From: a virus
IMG/VR virus record: IMGVR_UViG_3300037493_002420
Coordinates: 4,461 to 68,460 of that record
Direction: 5' to 3' (one strand)
DNA: 64,000 nucleotides
The notes beneath the pieces are model-generated. The model had not been told where the DNA came from and did no database searches. It saw only the letters and a list, made by a program, of their open reading frames with translations. Positions within the stretch are counted from its first letter, which is position 1. Each line of letters begins with the position of its first letter. Below are positions 8,165 through 61,137 of the stretch, piece after piece. The translations under genes and the position numbers were made by a program.

Positions 8165-11100
8165 TTAAATAAATTCTAATTCTCCACCTTCTGCTAAAAA
8201 TTGACGGATCTGTTCTTCAGACATCCACGTTTCTTCATTTTGTGGACTACCACCTTCTCTACCTATTCTAAGACCATTGTCCCCTTCTTGATCTAATCTA
8301 AATCTACCTTCTTGATCCCAGTCACCTTTATCAGTTCCGTAAGTAGTAGCATATAACTGATCTGCATTATATCTATTACCTTGATTTCTATTTTGTTTAG
8401 TTGAGTTCCATGTATCAATTGCATTAGCTGCCCAATTACCAGCTGTGTTAAATGCATCAAGAGCTCCTTTAGCATCTATATTCCACTCTTGTTTATTTTT
8501 AAACTTTTGAGATACTTGTTGTGAAGCTCCTGCTTGTTTTTCTTCATCAGATAGTAAACCTTCATTTCTATAACCAGTACCGGATGCGTCAAAACCCATA
8601 GATTTGTCTGTAGTTAATCCATTACCTTCTTGAGTAAAGTCATTACCCATTAACTTATCTGCGTTACCTTGAAGATTAGTTTTAGGTGAATAAATTTCAC
8701 CAGCTAAATTTTTATAAACTCCTGTTTTAGGGTCTTTAAAATATCCAAACGGTACATCTGTTTGTGGATTTCCAAACTGAGCTTGAGGAAGAGTAACTCC
8801 ACCATATGCTCTATTTTGTAATCTTAATCTTTCTAAATCCCAAGCTTGTCTATCAGCTTGATTTTCATCAGCTTGATCAATTCTATACTGTGAAGCTGAA
8901 ACTGGTGATTTTCTTAAGTTATCAATTACTCCCGGAGCATAATCATTTGTGGGCATTCCATTTTCATCAAAAATATTATCTTCTCCTGATTGATTATTAT
9001 TTGTCCAAGTGTCTTTACCATGTTCACCAAACCATTTTGAAACTCTCTCTGTTCTTCTATCATTTCTATCATCTCTCCAAGATTGTTCAGGTGCTTGATT
9101 TACATTATTATTAGTATTATCATTATTCATCCAATGTGTTTGTCCATCAGATCCAATATAACTTTTTGGTGTACCTGATGCATGAATACCTGGTTGTCCT
9201 GGTATATTATAGTTTACTGTAAACTTTTTTGGAGTACCATTTAATCTACTTTTGTTTACATTAATACTACTTACTTGTGCATTAGGTCCAATCATTCCAC
9301 TAATAGGATTAATTGTACCATAAGGTCTACCTATTGCTTTGTTCCAATTAGCTCCACGTGATATACTACTAGGAGGCATAAAAGCAAATGGATTAAATTG
9401 CATACCTAGACTTTGTAGATACTGTTGTGCATAATCAAAATTTTGTGGATTTGTATTTTGGTTTGTATTAGTAGTTGATGTATTTGTAGTAGGAGATCTA
9501 TGATTTAATCCAGCTCGTTCAGCTTCAGCTAATGTACCTTTTCTAACTACATTACCAGATGCATCTAAAATATCAACTACAGTATTATCTGTTTGACCAG
9601 CTGTTTGAAAATATCCACCTTTTTGAAAATAAGGACTAGATATATTTTTAGAATCAGAATAATCTAAATCATATTGAGTCATATCTTCTCCACCACCTAT
9701 AAATCTATATAAACCACTTTCTTCATCTGTAAAACCACCTTGTTGAAAAGGTAAACTATATTGAAAACCTCTTTGAGGATTGAGTAACCCTTGTCCAGGA
9801 TTCAACATACCTTGTCCCGGATTCAACATACTTTTTCCAGAATTTAACAAACCTTTTCCAGAATTTAATAAACCTTGACCTTTAGGTAAAAATCCTTTTG
9901 CAAAAGGTTTAAAAGCAAAATCACCTAATTGACTTAAAGTACTTTTAGCTAATTTAGCTTTACCATACATACCTAATGTAATTAAATCAAGTACTGCTTG
10001 ATCATCTTCCCCAGCACTCATAGGTCTATAGTTACCAGTTCTTGGATCAATAGCTGGATTATAACCTAAAGGATATTTTTTATTATTAGCACGTATTAAA
10101 TCTATTATTTTTTGTTCTTCAGTAGTAGGTTTTTTTACTTTAATTGGAGGTTTAGTTTTTGTACCATCTGTAGTTTTATTTTTTTCATCTGATTTTTTAA
10201 CATCAGGAACTTTATCTTTTTGAACAACAGGTGTTGTACCAGTTTTAATAACAGGTTTATCACCAGCAATTTCAATTTCATCAACTGTAGGTAAAGCTGT
10301 TTTAGTTACAGTTTCTTCAGCTACAACAGGTGCTGCCTCATCTACAACTACTTCTTTTTCAGCAACGTCATCTTTTATTATTTCTTGTGTAGCAGGTTCT
10401 GATTTAGTATTATTATATACAGGTTGATTAAAGTTAATAGTATATTCTTTTGGTCTACCAAAGATACCTGTTCTACGTACATCAATATTAGCTAAACCTA
10501 AGTTACCTTGGTTAGGCATAAATTGAGCAAGAGGATTATTACCCTGCATAAAAGGATTAGCCATCATAGGATTAAACCCTCTAGGTATCATTCTATTAAG
10601 TTTTCTTGCTGCACGTCTTTCTTTACCATGACCCCATCCACCAAACTGTGCTTGAGTTAATTGATTAAAAGGCATTGAATGTTCAAAAGCTCCACTATAA
10701 TGTTCTAAATTATGATATGGGTCAAAATTTAATACACCAGATTCAGTGTCTCCACCATCTTGTGCATAATCTTGCATCATTGGAGGTTGTTGTAAATGTT
10801 GCATATATTGATTATACTGTTCTTCAGCTTGTTGCTTAAGAGCAGCAGTGTTAGCTTCATTTTTTATAGAACCCAAAAAGTTATTAACTCTTTCTTCTCT
10901 ACCTCTTAATGGAATATCTGTAGAATCAATAGGTTTTTTATTTGAATCACCGCCTTCTTGTTTTTTAGCAAGTTTCATGAAAGTATCCATATACTTTCTT
11001 TTACTTATAGGCCCACCTTTACGCATTACAATATCTGCTTCAGCTTGATCATACACATCTTCACCAGAAGTATCATCTGCATATATTTGACTCATCAAAC

Positions 11101-56826: not shown

Positions 56827-57156
56827 ATGATTATGGCAAATGTATTCAGTGAAACAAAAACACTACAGTCTTTCGGAACTTCACGTCAATTGACAGGTGT
56901 GAAATTAATTCAAAACCCAAAAGAGGGAGGGAAGTTATTTGGAGAATTCAGTAACGGGGAAACTGCACGTCTTGCAAAAGACGTAACAGACCTTAAAGGG
57001 GATTTATCAGTATCGTGGTTCACACCTGAATCAGGGGACGCTAGTTGGATGATACACCGTACAGGTGCAAGTGCAAATGTTGTAGCCGAGATGTCTTTCG
57101 GTGCACCAAGTGCAGTTGCTACACCTGTAGCGTCAGCTGACTTAAAAGTCGGATAA
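56827..57156 (+). CDS. Early hypothetical beta-rich protein
   Basis: 109 aa; followed by the strong terminator at 57161-57201. Confidence 0.75.
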   Translation: MIMANVFSETKTLQSFGTSRQLTGVKLIQNPKEGGKLFGEFSNGETARLAKDVTDLKGDLSVSWFTPESGDASWMIHRTGASANVVAEMSFGAPSAVATPVASADLKVG

Positions 57157-57160
57157 TATT

Positions 57161-57201
57161 ATACACCTACATAGAGATATGTAGGTGTATTTTATTTTTT
57201 T
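57161..57201 (+). terminator. Strong intrinsic terminator
   Basis: 13-bp stem ATACACCTACATA-GAGA-TATGTAGGTGTAT plus U-tract. Confidence 0.8.
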
Positions 57202-57728
57202 CATATGTGCTTTATGTTGGCTTTCAGCAACTTGTTTTTTTCATCTTTATACTTATATAGATATTATTATTGAGCTTCATAGTTTATAATGGTACTTAAC
57301 AGATATATACTACAGAGCAGGTCAGCTATTGACTACGGAACGGTGTAGATATAATATAGATGAGTAAGCTACATTAGATGAAGAGTAATAGTTTGAGTGT
57401 AGATAAAGTTGTCTCCACCCTGTGTAGCTTTGTGCCTTTTAAAAGTTAAGTGCTTGATTATTAAGTAATTAATTTTTGATGGATTAAGTGATGAGAGGGT
57501 CTGATTGAGGGACTGAAATACTTTATCCTCTTCAATACCCTTCAACATACTTGGTAAATACCTCTCAAAGTAGGTACAGTACATAGTATATAGCTATTAG
57601 CCCTTGTACATTAGACCCTTTTACTTATAGTAATTGTTTAAGTACTCTTATATCTATTACTATTACTATATACTAGAGTATCACAGTAAACACATCCGGA
57701 ATTCATTTAACCCACTAAAATATTATAT

Positions 57729-57881
57729 ATGAAAGAACTTAAAAAAGAAGACATACTAAGTATTGCAAAGAAAGAATATGAGATAGGTTTTAAACAGGGT
57801 ATCTCTATAGGAATGTGGATAGGTGCATTTTTAGTTGGAATACTATTTACACTATTTACATATTTCTTTCCTCTTCCTTGA
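57729..57881 (+). CDS. Small single-TM protein, 50 aa (not in the ORF track)
   Basis: MKELKKEDILSIAKKEYEIGFKQGISIGMWIGAFLVGILFTLFTYFFPLP; AT-rich leader. Confidence 0.6.
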   Translation: MKELKKEDILSIAKKEYEIGFKQGISIGMWIGAFLVGILFTLFTYFFPLP

Positions 57882-58136
57882 GTGTAATTGTATCCGGAAT
57901 TAAATAAAATTGGGAGTATGTGACCATGAAAGAGGCATACATTTTAACTAACAACTGGATATAATCAAGCGAATCACCAGTCTAAAAAAGAGTCAGTGCA
58001 ATGGGTAGAGAAGCACATTAATCGTAACTGCCATAACTAAATTATTAATGAAATTAAAGGCTACGTGTCAAGGTGGGAGGTCCATGTGACTATACTTGAG
58101 ATGGGACAACTCATTGGGCTTTTTAATTTCATTTTT

Positions 58137-58280
58137 ACTCTCATCCAAGCAGGATAGTTATGTACAGATTTACTCTGTAAAAAGTAATAGACTTAACCGT
58201 CTGTCTATTACATAATGATCAGGAGGGGAAACCCCGCTCAAGACCACATAATCAAGGGTTGCAACCTTGTGAGAGTACCA
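58137..58280 (+). ncRNA. tRNA-like RNA (acceptor stem + T-arm + CCA) with an expanded central domain
   Basis: ACTCTCA/TGAGAGT 7-bp stem, discriminator A and CCA; the adjacent CAAGG-GTTGCAA-CCTTG arm has a 5-bp stem and 7-nt loop. Confidence 0.6.
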
Positions 58281-58439
58281 ATTAAAATACGTGTTGCCCA
58301 AGCTTCTACAAGATTAGTTATCTTGTCAGTTCTCTTGTCTCATTGAGACATGCTACTGTAATGAGGACAGTACAACTTTGCTTTTAAGGCTACCTTGAAA
58401 TAGGTAAGTGAGTGAGACTTAACTAGTCTAAAGCCTTTG

Positions 58440-58505
58440 TAATGCACCATTCCTGATTCCCAAGGTCAGGCTATAAAGATTAGCTGTCTTATAGAGTGCA
58501 GAGGG
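58440..58505 (+). ncRNA. Twister ribozyme, type P1 (compact copy)
   Basis: UAA-UGCA-CC..CCUGA-UUCCCAAGG-UCAGG-[P5]-AG-UGCA-GAGGG matches the twister core (UAA cleavage site, P2, P4, UCCCAA loop, GAGGG, both pseudoknots); P1 is weak. Confidence 0.8.
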
Positions 58506-58603
58506 GGATCATTGTACAGAAAGCGGAGCAGTAGGCTGTTACAATCAAAACAATAAAAGTTTTTATCATTTGTGCACAGGTGATAATTAAAACGAAGCTC
58601 CTG

Positions 58604-58869
58604 TAATGCACCACAACTCACGTGGATATAAAGACTTCTTGTGATCAGCATAGCTGGAAAGACAGTGAGTGAAAACTCCTACAAGATGTGAAACCACAAT
58701 GATTAACCAATACCTGCAATAATATTCCTTTGAATGCAGGGTAAGGACATATAAGAGGTAACTGTCTTCTTTTAGTTAATCATTCTCCCAAGGGTGAGCA
58801 GTTGTAACATTAGTGATTGGCTCTAGGGGACACCTAACCATAGTTTTTATTACAACTGAGTGCAGAGGG
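58604..58869 (+). ncRNA. Twister ribozyme variant with 163-nt insertion in L4
   Basis: UAA-UGCA-CC..CUCAC-[insert]-CUCCCAAGG-GUGAG-[P5]-AG-UGCA-GAGGG. Confidence 0.7.
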
Positions 58870-59233
58870 GTTATTAATTATTTAAAGTCTTTAATATCAA
58901 GTATAAAATGAGGCAAAATCCGCTAACCTCTTAGAGTATAGTCAGACTGCAGATAACTGCTATATGCTCACGTTCGATAAAATCTGCTGAAGTGAAGGTG
59001 TCAGCATACTTGATATTAATAACATTAATCAATACACTACTAGCTAGGGTGCTTACAGGGGGTTCCCTGATAGAATGTAGAATATAACAGAAGATGTAGG
59101 TTCTACTATTGATTTAATAAGTGTGGGTTGTTACACTATAATAAAACAACTATCCAGTAAGCTGCTGGCGTGGGACTGTCCAGTATAGATACAAGACAGT
59201 AGGCTTTGGTCAATATGCCTTAATGACCATAAA

Positions 59234-59526
59234 TAATGCACCATTCTCACGTGGATATAAAGACTTCTTGTTAACAATAGGGTAGGATAAAACCGTAAAG
59301 TCCCTGTTTTGGTCAAGATGTGAAACCACAATGATTAATAATATCCTCTTATCTAAGAAGGACAGAGAACTATGTTATGTGAGCATGGAACTACTACAAT
59401 TAAGTAGTAAGTTGAAATACATCTATTAATCATTCTCCCAAGGGTGAGCAGTTGTAATAGATATTAGCAGGTAAAGGGTTCAGCTGACTACTCCTGAATA
59501 TATTTATTACAGCTGAGTGCAGAGGG
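59234..59526 (+). ncRNA. Twister ribozyme variant with 184-nt insertion in L4
   Basis: Same scaffold as 58604-58869 with unrelated loop contents. Confidence 0.7.
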
Positions 59527-59628
59527 GTTACTAATTAACATCACAGTCCAATTGCCGTTAGGGTCTAACAAGGGAGACTGGCTGTCCTTGCTGTGATGTT
59601 TATTTTATTAATCTTAACACTTACTAAT

Positions 59629-59703
59629 ATGATATATTTAATTTTAATGGTGATTGTATTTATTATAGGAATAAGTTACTTAACCTACCAACTATTTAAA
59701 TAA
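59629..59703 (+). CDS. 24-aa hydrophobic micropeptide (not in the ORF track)
   Basis: MIYLILMVIVFIIGISYLTYQLFK; AT-rich leader. Confidence 0.45.
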   Translation: MIYLILMVIVFIIGISYLTYQLFK

Positions 59704-59706
59704 TAT

Positions 59707-59973
59707 TAACCTATCATCCTGTGTGTATGAAGACTTCTTATCTTTAAAAGAAACACCTGAAATGGGAGATAAGATGTAAAACCACAATGATTAAGTTTGA
59801 AAATAATACTACAGATTATGCATGTAGTTCTTAATCATTTTCCCAAGAACAGGCAGTTGTAATAAAAGACCAACCAGTAAAGAGTCTGACCTTAAGTGTC
59901 ACCTTTATTTGAACTTGAAATATACTAAGAAGAAAAGGTCTGGGTAATTGATATTACAACTGAATAGGGAGGG
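59707..59973 (+). ncRNA. Twister ribozyme variant with 117-nt insertion in L4 (covarying copy)
   Basis: UAA-CCUA-UC..CCUGU-[insert]-UUCCCAAGA-ACAGG-[P5]-AA-UAGG-GAGGG; P2, P4 and T2 all show compensatory changes. Confidence 0.72.
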
Positions 59974-60012
59974 GTAAAAATAAAACATTACTAACTTAAA
60001 ACTATACTTAAA

Positions 60013-61137
60013 ATGGAAATTAAAACTATAATTAGAGGAGAACAAGAATTGTTCAAAATGGAAGAAGCTAAAGCTTTGCCTTTACCTTTACAGAGATACA
60101 AGTTTTATAAAGGAGACCTGTATCCGTTTAATGTTATCAACAAGAAAGAAACTGATACAAATATTTATTGGTCTCTTACTATAAAAACACCAAGATTTGA
60201 AAACAATAGATTATTTTATCTATCTAAAAATAAATCAGGTGTCACTTTTGATAAAGCTAAAAAGACTATTAAGATTTGGTTTGGCCACAATATCACTACA
60301 TTAGAACATGATATTATGCCAGATATTATTAAAACTTTTCAATTAGATTGGTTCAGTAATATGTCAAATTCATTAAAGACACTCTTAAATAATACAATGC
60401 TTCAAAATTGTATTAAAGGTAAGATTACTAATCCTAGAGATTATGTTAAAGCTTATCTTAAGACTAGTCCTTATAAGAATTTAGATATATCCGTTGAATT
60501 ATTTTATAAGACTTTTAGTGATACCCGTATAGGTTCACCAAAATCTTACAAAAAGACAATTCTTTATAGTGTTAATCCTAATGAAAGTTTAGAGTACATA
60601 GGAAGAACTTTTAATCAGAGTAGTATTAATTCAACTATTTATGACTTATTTAATCAAGCTGAATTACTTGATAGAAAAGTAAATATCAAATGGTCAGAAT
60701 CTAGAATGAAGGAAATACATAAAGAATGGACTAGAGAATTAATGAGTATTGCTATTAATTCAATTGAACCTGTTGAATATAATTATCCGGAACTTGAAAC
60801 ACCTGAAGGTATTAGCTTAATTACAAATAATATTGAATTATTTGAAGAAGGTACAATAATGGACCATTGTGTTTATACTAATTATGAATATAAAGTAAGA
60901 TCTAAAAATTATTTTGTATTTAGGTATAATAGGAATGATGTTAGAGCTACAGTTGGTGTAACACAAGCCGTAGATAAAATAGAAATAAATCAGATGTATT
61001 CTATTAGAAATACTCCAGTTGACCAAGAACATAAAGATTATGTTTCAACATGGTTAAATTCTGAGTATACTAGAAATTGGTTTACAGCTGATAATGAAAA
61101 AGTAGTTTTAATTGACACTAATACTGATTGGTTATGA
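60013..61137 (+). CDS. PcfJ-like domain protein
   Basis: C-terminal ELFEEGTIMDHCVYT.Y..RATV..QMY..RN motif. Confidence 0.7.
   Translation: MEIKTIIRGEQELFKMEEAKALPLPLQRYKFYKGDLYPFNVINKKETDTNIYWSLTIKTPRFENNRLFYLSKNKSGVTFDKAKKTIKIWFGHNITTLEHDIMPDIIKTFQLDWFSNMSNSLKTLLNNTMLQNCIKGKITNPRDYVKAYLKTSPYKNLDISVELFYKTFSDTRIGSPKSYKKTILYSVNPNESLEYIGRTFNQSSINSTIYDLFNQAELLDRKVNIKWSESRMKEIHKEWTRELMSIAINSIEPVEYNYPELETPEGISLITNNIELFEEGTIMDHCVYTNYEYKVRSKNYFVFRYNRNDVRATVGVTQAVDKIEINQMYSIRNTPVDQEHKDYVSTWLNSEYTRNWFTADNEKVVLIDTNTDWL

Follow-up and report, generated by a model that had tools for sequence, protein, structure and literature searches.

L4 is regarded as the compact catalytic loop of the twister ribozyme. 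Here, we describe a family of phage RNAs in which this loop can hold a domain of more than a hundred nucleotides. The window, i.e., the whole 64,000-nucleotide stretch of DNA that was analyzed, is part of a 68,460-base IMG/VR virus record (IMGVR_UViG_3300037493_002420; about 30% G+C). It contains four related twister-like units placed head to tail on the plus strand, in a gap without any open reading frame (ORF) of note (57900-60012). One unit is compact and the other three have an insert in L4. We favor, with a probability of roughly 0.55, the explanation that the three inserts are copies of one conserved peripheral RNA domain, found in an extensive branch of type-P1 twister-like ribozymes that is borne by phages and missing from catalogues, and that the domain would have a constitutive structural or cargo-bearing role. 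The expanded form is common in phages and absent from RNA catalogues.

The three expanded copies share one layout. Each insert lies between the 5′ strand of the 5-bp P4 and the loop CU/UU-CCC-AA-GR, i.e., within the loop closed by P4, at a point where the compact copy (58440-58505) has no insert. The ranges given for the inserts in a sequence-only reading of this DNA (58622-58784, 59251-59434, and 59723-59839) agree exactly with the positions that we obtained by script, and every insert does consist, as that reading had it, of a helix A and a helix B. Helix A starts with a 4-bp stem (helix A1), followed by an internal loop that is asymmetric and rich in A, a 7-bp stem of conserved sequence that includes one U.U (helix A2), and a hypervariable tip. 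Helix B has a conserved NUGAU/AUCAN base and then a hypervariable tip of its own. Both helices are recovered in the minimum free energy (MFE) fold of copy 1, together with P2, P4, and P5, and the shared blocks of the expanded copies were reported as three-copy repeat families by a repeat search of the window. P2 and P4 of copy 3 are fully compensatory with respect to copies 1 and 2 (Table 1).

The domain is widespread. A covariance model spanning P4 to P4′ (R1), for which 11 sequences were used, had 20 matches in 97 sources, 41 in 92, and 33 in 81, for a total of 94 in 270 sources, of which three are the window copies and 91 lie outside the window. These searches excluded L006, which duplicates L005, and L001-L003, which are DNA of the window itself. 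Other viral contigs and one metagenome-assembled genome (MAG) also contain the junction motif linking helix A to helix B; in the search of genome contigs, 2 of 11 loci (L182 and L183, one MAG) are family members according to R1. The pair cells of the domain are paired in 94.5, 95.6, and 95.5% of cases in the three model alignments, against 23-48% when partners are slid, and none of 500 shuffles reached the observed paired fraction in any of the three. Compensatory changes occur in helix A1, in the distal part of helix A2, in helix B, and in P4. Together, the matches, the covariation, and the slid controls bear out the proposal that the insert is a conserved multi-helix domain.

How conserved are the unpaired positions? 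The pattern used to search for the junction between helices A and B fixed much of the 3′ side of helix A. Because of this, a second sample was chosen by the 3′ strand of helix B and L4 alone. In this sample, helix A1 is GUGG/CCAC in 18 cases, GUAG/CUAC in 17, and GCAG/CUGC in 1, and helix A2 is ACUUCUU/AAGAUGU in 32 of 38. The 5′ strand of the internal loop is AUAUAAAG in 26 of 38 and AUAUGAAG in 5 of 38, and the 3′ strand is GAAA or AAAA. Hence, the internal loop is indeed largely conserved in the family (31/38), as was claimed from the window copies, without being invariant. Rows that depart from the template have loop variants such as CAUAAG and UGUACAG; L208 and L209 have ACAUUUU/AAAAUGU as helix A2, with the U.U replaced by an A-U pair; helix A of L058 is a bare 4-bp hairpin without internal loop, and L142 has a 4-nt loop. 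The tips vary in both length and sequence (31-161 nt for the helix A region and 40-107 nt for that of helix B). The length of the domain ranges from 117 to 184 nt. By eye, the internal loop does not fit the consensus of K-turn, sarcin-ricin, or 11-nt receptor motifs; a UAA/GAN-type motif may be a lead.

The junctions of the domain with the core are tight. In 59 of 61 domain matches there are 0 nt between P4 and helix A1, whose 3′ strand directly abuts the 5′ strand of helix B in the model alignments. At least 6 contiguous helix B pairs, starting right after CCAC and ending 2 nt before CCC, are present in 44 of 49 expanded rows. The loop that follows helix B is CUCCCAAGG in 45 of the 61 matches, which are the same 9 nt as in copy 1 (58785-58793).

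The cores of these units have both the layout and the loop sequences of twister, in agreement with the sequence-only reading. They begin with U-A-A and a P2 of 4 bp, continue through two bases and a short linker to P4, which closes L4 (CCC-AA-G), and end with P5, the 3′ strand of P2, and G-A-GGG. With the type-P1 twister (RF03160; the class of Roth et al., 2014) they share the order U-A, A, P2, internal loop, P4/L4 with CCC-AA-G, optional P5, P2 3′ strand, and G-A-GGG, as well as the complementarity of CCC and GGG (candidate T1) and that of the two bases after P2 with the two after AA (candidate T2). UAA directly precedes P2 in all four window copies. Among the 26 compact members aligned (alignment A2), nucleotides A1 and A2 just after the predicted cleavage site (A14 and A15) do not vary; pairing reaches 100% of cells in P2, with compensatory changes in 2 of 4 pairs, in P4 100% with covariation in 5 of 5 pairs, and the base of P5 in 98.7%, against 32-46% in slid-partner controls. 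P4 is paired in 93.5-95.1% of cells in the model alignments of expanded members. P2 occurs as UGCA, UGUA/UACA, UGCG/CGCA, and CCUA/UAGG. The nucleotide before the predicted cleavage site (N-1) is U in 61 of 65 family sites, C in 3, and A in 1. CCCAAG of L4 and GAGGG are also invariant in the compact alignment; the invariance of CCCAAG and GAGGG in the fetched set is partly by construction, since the search patterns demanded both. The L4 of the family is in accord with the rice P4/L4 16-mer given in PMC11662667, and the conserved positions coincide with T1, T2, or essential residues (G30, A46, G48, C25-C27) in PMC5113685.

Several observations weigh against our explanation and should be set out together. 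No twister model matches at E≤10 in 57000-61000, in the compact copy, in four loci including the member with the shortest P5, or in copy 3. Folding energies are ordinary (z of -0.34 for copy 1 and -1.10 for copy 3), and the MFE of copy 3 departs from the structural model. P1 is essentially absent, with 49% of cells paired in a fixed register in the compact alignment, and the duplex energies of its flanks are -1.7 and -1.6 kcal/mol, against -1.3 and -1.2 for mismatched partners; PMC11662667 describes P1 as unimportant for cleavage and insertions next to it as tolerated. T1, which CCC of L4 would form with GGG of L1, is complementary in 26 of 26 compact members and never varies (CCC is altered in 4 of 61 expanded members), so that it yields no covariation. 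For the outer T2 pair, 59 of 65 sites can pair (52 C-G, 5 U.G, 2 U-A), with 6 mismatches and 2 compensatory cases; the inner one is C-G in 61, U.G in 2, and mismatched in 2. The first base after P2 pairs equally well or better with the base 5′ of the 3′ strand of P2 (62/65, of which 6 are compensatory U-A), and this fifth P2 pair could be an alternative, inactive state. The idea of the sequence-only reading that L4 forms both pseudoknots was carried over from the canonical twister. Covariation leaves T1 and T2 unproven. Furthermore, the junction search pattern imposes much of the invariance in the 41-match alignment. Finally, the conservation of the internal loop, of helix A2 with its U.U, and of the helix B base exceeds what helices alone would require. 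A pure spacer fails to account for this conservation, which a binding site would also fit.

A scan of the window at Rfam gathering thresholds returned 0 families, and RF03160 (gathering score of 67.2 bits) has no match at E≤10 across the whole virus record; with the E≤10 scans above, these empty results leave the architecture without a match to any Rfam family. What would have refuted the sequence-only reading was thus not observed, since Rfam gives no match and most homologues keep the loop. Membership in Rfam fails, yet the type-P1 layout and the conserved loops are there, and we therefore call the family divergent twister-type. To judge from sequence, the cores are probably twister-type ribozymes of a divergent phage branch, which would cleave themselves. 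Blastn of 57900-60012 against deposited phages gave no match. ARAGORN found no tRNA within the window, and Rfam nothing at 58137-58280.

The expanded form is a sizeable minority of the family. In a sample obtained with a core pattern blind to the insert, 38 family sites comprised 24 compact ones, 13 non-compact ones, and 1 at a contig edge. The 13 non-compact sites were 10 with standard helices A and B, 1 with a short helix A, 1 degenerate, and 1 compact variant, which gives 12 expanded members of 37. Another sample, likewise blind to the insert, came from a 16-mer of the 5′ core with 104 unique metagenome matches, of which 59 were chance, 31 compact, and 8 with helices A and B; two further matches are cut by the contig end just after the start of helix A, which gives about 8-10 of 40. 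Contigs starting at nucleotide A1, directly after the predicted cleavage site, were looked for with the same 16-mer and none was found among the metagenome matches listed. Expanded members thus make up about a quarter to a third of the family, always with the same domain. Matches to the L4-P4-P5 junction pattern were mostly chance (a matching 3′ half at 41 of 127 sites in 141 loci, among the matches listed). Alignment A2 took 26 of 34 compact sites, leaving out sites longer than about 200 nt and two mis-parsed rows; alignment A3 took 41 of 49 expanded rows, and A5 has 11 rows. Compact and expanded members show no difference in L2, P5 length, or P1, and they occur in the same arrays and at the same position in 5′ untranslated regions (UTRs). 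One contig (L158, about 9977-10481, minus strand) has three consecutive units, two compact and one expanded, with a single base between GAGGG and the UAA of the next unit for two of them. In two expanded members (L160 and L162), P4′ is followed by an A/U-rich stretch instead of a CAGUUGUAA P5; these 3′ halves are possibly truncated or built differently.

Of the 75 family sites that could be parsed, 8 are too close to the end of the locus, which leaves 67 evaluable. An ATG of an ORF of at least 50 amino acids follows within 150 nt in 36 of them, and in 23 of these the distance is 29-47 nt; a loose control with random positions gave 545 of 1,460 within 150 nt. In the window, the ATG of ORF 60013 is 39 nt past GAGGG of copy 3, which places this copy in the 5′ UTR of the gene. 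Arrays are frequent (the window, L028, L045, L119, L158, and L161). The 37 ORFs found within 150 nt downstream fall into 31 unrelated BLASTP clusters, and most of the proteins have 50-150 amino acids.

How could a catalytic loop accept such a domain? The zero linkers between P4 and helix A1 and between helices A1 and B imply that A1 and B can stack. The two would then stack end to end as a quasi-continuous helix, the chain entering and leaving at the nick, so that the residues of entry and exit would be neighbors, and the domain would take the place of one phosphodiester step where L4 begins. The segment CU-CCC-AA-GG would keep the path it has in the compact copy, from which it could still reach GAGGG for T1 and, for T2, the bases that follow P2. 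Such a coaxial stack would explain why there are two helices instead of one, and how T1 and T2 may still form. According to PMC11662667, L4 tolerates imperfections at its positions 1 and 9, and its length is without effect. The insert enters at the equivalent of the tolerant position 1, which should hence be permissive. The ribozyme would cut the transcript just 5′ of itself, and the folded RNA would stay at the 5′ end of the downstream message. The simplest and most likely reading of these features would be a generic cis-processing module of phage leaders. The domain would be a constitutive accessory, providing an element for folding or tertiary contacts plus two more arms for variable hairpins, and would not act as a ligand sensor.

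The conserved loop could nevertheless be a site of regulation. If the domain were a natural sensor, a ligand or protein on the A-rich loop and the U.U helix would decide whether T1 and T2 form, thus timing the processing of early phage messages, with the fifth P2 pair as the off state; we regard this as doubtful. If true, these RNAs would represent a novel type of natural allosteric self-cleaving ribozyme. The version in which a metabolite or second messenger docks on the internal loop and gates T1/T2 formation and cleavage is very improbable in our view, even if a conserved, unpaired, purine-rich loop beside a multi-helix junction, a helix kept with its mismatch, the location in L4, and the ligand dependence attainable in engineered twisters (PMC5052635) would all suit it. 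We found no positive evidence for the natural aptazyme that the sequence-only reading had suggested. Over the inserts, no Rfam aptamer class matches at E≤10 (only chance-level microRNA, small nucleolar RNA, and long noncoding RNA rows appear), the downstream genes have no common function, and the domain is limited to 12 of 37 members in one sample and about 8-10 of 40 in the other, alongside compact copies. In addition, the loop varies (CAUAAG, UGUACAG, AAAA) or is missing, and we found no conserved mutually exclusive pairing, the weak wobble complementarity of CUUCUU and GAGGGG having been noticed by eye only. A protein is an unlikely partner too. In that case a phage or host protein would dock on the loop, on the helix with the U.U, and on the helix B base, and it would control T1/T2 formation, and so cleavage, or use the processed 5′ end, e.g., for stability or translation. 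This would account for the loop sequence itself being kept (AUAUAAAG or AUAUGAAG in 31/38, mostly with GAAA), for the conservation of helix A2 with its mismatch and of the helix B core, and for a domain on a loop that must reach the catalytic strand. However, no partner gene is linked to the family (31 clusters among 37 downstream ORFs, and only weak PcfJ and HD matches as neighbors), L058 lacks the loop and L142 has a shortened one, and the compact copies of these arrays serve the same purpose.

Two further alternatives do without regulation. The twister fold could be a rigid frame, without cleavage, that displays the three variable tips (helix A, helix B, and P5). The missing P1, the hypervariable and modular tips, one of which (helix B of copy 3) is identical in L146 and L167, and the presence, by eye, of one module type in different slots (P5 in L004, helix A in L175) are consistent with this, but the residues that serve catalysis alone are retained (nucleotide A1 does not vary, nor do the G and A of GAGGG, and N-1 is U in 61/65) and the spacing of 29-47 nt to start codons (23/67) fits a processing site, which makes such a frame improbable. 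The helices could also be the terminal inverted repeats of small mobile insertions that the RNA merely tolerates, given that an inverted repeat bounds each variable slot and that modules are shuffled between contigs. We give this DNA-level explanation almost no credit: there are G.U cells in the helices, the linker is zero at 59 of 61 junctions, the asymmetric loop is conserved on both strands, and one homologous domain accounts for all 12 inserts of the blind sample, all of which fits selection on RNA.

Under the favored explanation of a constitutive domain, its tips would be carriers of variable hairpins. The tip of helix B in copy 3 (59795-59830) is 100% identical over 36 nt in L146 (11308-11343) and L167 (2944-2979). 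By eye, tips of P5 and of the helices turn up again in other contigs and at times in another slot, as does the module type shared by L004 (P5 slot) and L175 (helix A slot); because of this recurrence, the tips behave as exchangeable modules. The helix A tip of L144 and the helix B tip of L173 contain GGGUUCAAUUCCC, a hairpin resembling a tRNA T-arm. The tips of helices A and B and of P5 were also considered as antisense RNAs, and merely 10-17 nt matches at chance level were found elsewhere in the window.

Table 1. Twister-like units, their L4 domains, and the first downstream ORF, in window coordinates
Feature	Positions	Strand	Parts	Basis
Compact twister-like core	58440..58505	+	N-1 U58440, A1 58441; P2 58443-46 with 58497-500; T2 candidates 58447-48 with 58464-65; P4 CCUGA 58452-58456 and UCAGG 58466-58470; L4 UUCCCAAGG 58457-58465, no insert; short P5 hairpin 58471-58495; GAGGG 58501-05	Sequence, script positions; aligned with 25 other compact members (alignment A2)
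Expanded copy 1, entire ribozyme	58604..58869	+	Predicted cleavage U58604/A58605; P2 58607-10 with 58861-64; T2 candidates 58611-12 with 58792-93; P4 58617-21 with 58794-98; P5 58799-58858; GAGGG 58865-69	Sequence, script positions, MFE fold
Copy 1, competing pairing	58611		With 58792-93 (T2) or with 58860 (fifth P2 pair); same positions family-wide	
Copy 1, L4 domain	58622..58784	+	Helix A1 GUGG 58622-58625 with CCAC 58694-58697; internal loop AUAUAAAG 58626-58633 opposite GAAA 58690-58693; helix A2 ACUUCUU 58634-58640 with AAGAUGU 58683-58689, one U.U; variable tip 58641-82; helix B AAUGAUUAA 58698-58706 with UUAAUCAUU 58776-58784; variable tip 58707-75	Script positions, MFE fold; R1 match of 113.8 bits
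Copy 1, remaining L4	58785..58793	+	CU linker, CCC (T1 strand), AA, GG (T2 strand)	
Expanded copy 2, entire ribozyme	59234..59526	+	N-1 U59234; P4 59246-50 with 59444-48; L4 59435-43; P5 from 59449; P2 3′ strand 59518-21; GAGGG 59522-26	Sequence, script positions
Copy 2, L4 domain	59251..59434	+	Helix A1, internal loop, helix A2, and helix B like copy 1, other tips	R1 match of 114.8 bits
Expanded copy 3, entire ribozyme	59707..59973	+	N-1 U59707; P2 CCUA 59710-13 with UAGG 59965-68; T2 candidates UC 59714-15 with GA 59847-48; P4 CCUGU 59718-22 with ACAGG 59849-53; P5 59854-62 with 59954-62; GAGGG 59969-73	
Copy 3, L4 domain	59723..59839	+	Helix A1 cut to 3 pairs, GUG with CAC; loop UAUGAAG opposite AAAA; helix A2 59733-39 with 59771-77; helix B 59786-94 with 59831-39	Script positions; R1 match of 118.3 bits
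First downstream ORF	60013..61137	+	374 amino acids; ATG 39 nt after GAGGG of copy 3	Weak PcfJ-like match

The surroundings of the units add a few observations. The phage structural genes of the window, portal and major head, are on the minus strand. In 57600-60100, a scan for promoters and terminators found 8 promoter-like sites where 10.3 were expected, and no terminator; since the sites are no more numerous than expected, it is uninformative on transcription units. Among the public sequencing runs listed as containing this stretch, none was of RNA. Between copies 2 and 3 (59541-59610), a U-rich run comes after a long hairpin, ACAUCACAG...CUGUGAUGU. The arrangement resembles a terminator that the terminator scan did not report, in which case copy 3 may share a separate transcript with ORF 60013. 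Further downstream, 61535-61963 matches an HD-domain phosphohydrolase (phrog_990, 1.2e-53), with Pfam HD_4 just below the cut-off; this phosphohydrolase adjoins ribozymes that would leave cyclic phosphate ends. Outside the window, L053 has two tRNA matches (481-597 and 682-750, of 31.4 and 48.3 bits), one of them with a 56-nt insertion; an expanded ribozyme precedes them by a few hundred bases.

The family differs from known twisters in several respects. Relative to the type-P1 twister, it goes undetected by the Rfam model, its L2 is shorter, P1 is practically absent, the base of P5 is conserved and always bears a long variable tip, and a quarter to a third of the members have a two-helix domain of 117-184 nt in L4, at a point that corresponds to position 1 of the type-P1 loop; cleavage is predicted here. 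The outer T2 pair is C-G or U-A, in contrast to G-C in rice in the numbering of PMC5113685. The available literature places the described variation of twister elsewhere than in L4, as the sequence-only reading had stated: PMC5408937 counts P1, P2, and P4 among the essential stems and P0, P3, and P5 among the optional ones, Felletti et al. (2016; PMC5052635) name P1, P3, and P5 as attachment sites and place aptamers at P1 and P5, and PMC10085705 reports a search for more twister permutations that gave no promising candidates. The engineered twister aptazymes of PMC5052635 likewise combine a core in a bacterial 5′ UTR with added domains that modulate expression, but none of these is in L4, and the domain described here is natural and has no known ligand. 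Ligand-coupled catalytic leader RNAs are also comparable, being catalytic RNAs in an mRNA leader that are possibly coupled to a bound factor; they have a defined ligand tied to the adjacent gene, whereas here the genes are unrelated and there is no recognizable aptamer. A full-text literature search found no paper on the L4 domain or on the phage family, the alignments and supplements of Roth et al. (2014), which may hold members, being outside its reach.

These results may have consequences beyond this phage. A widespread two-helix domain of more than 100 nt in L4 would show that L4 position 1 is a natural site of expansion, and it would provide a ready-made junction design for placing domains beside a pseudoknot. 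It would also enlarge the set of phage ribozymes that current catalogues have overlooked. The purpose of bacterial and phage twisters has long been open, and the fixed spacing to start codons makes processing in the 5′ UTR a directly testable function for this family.

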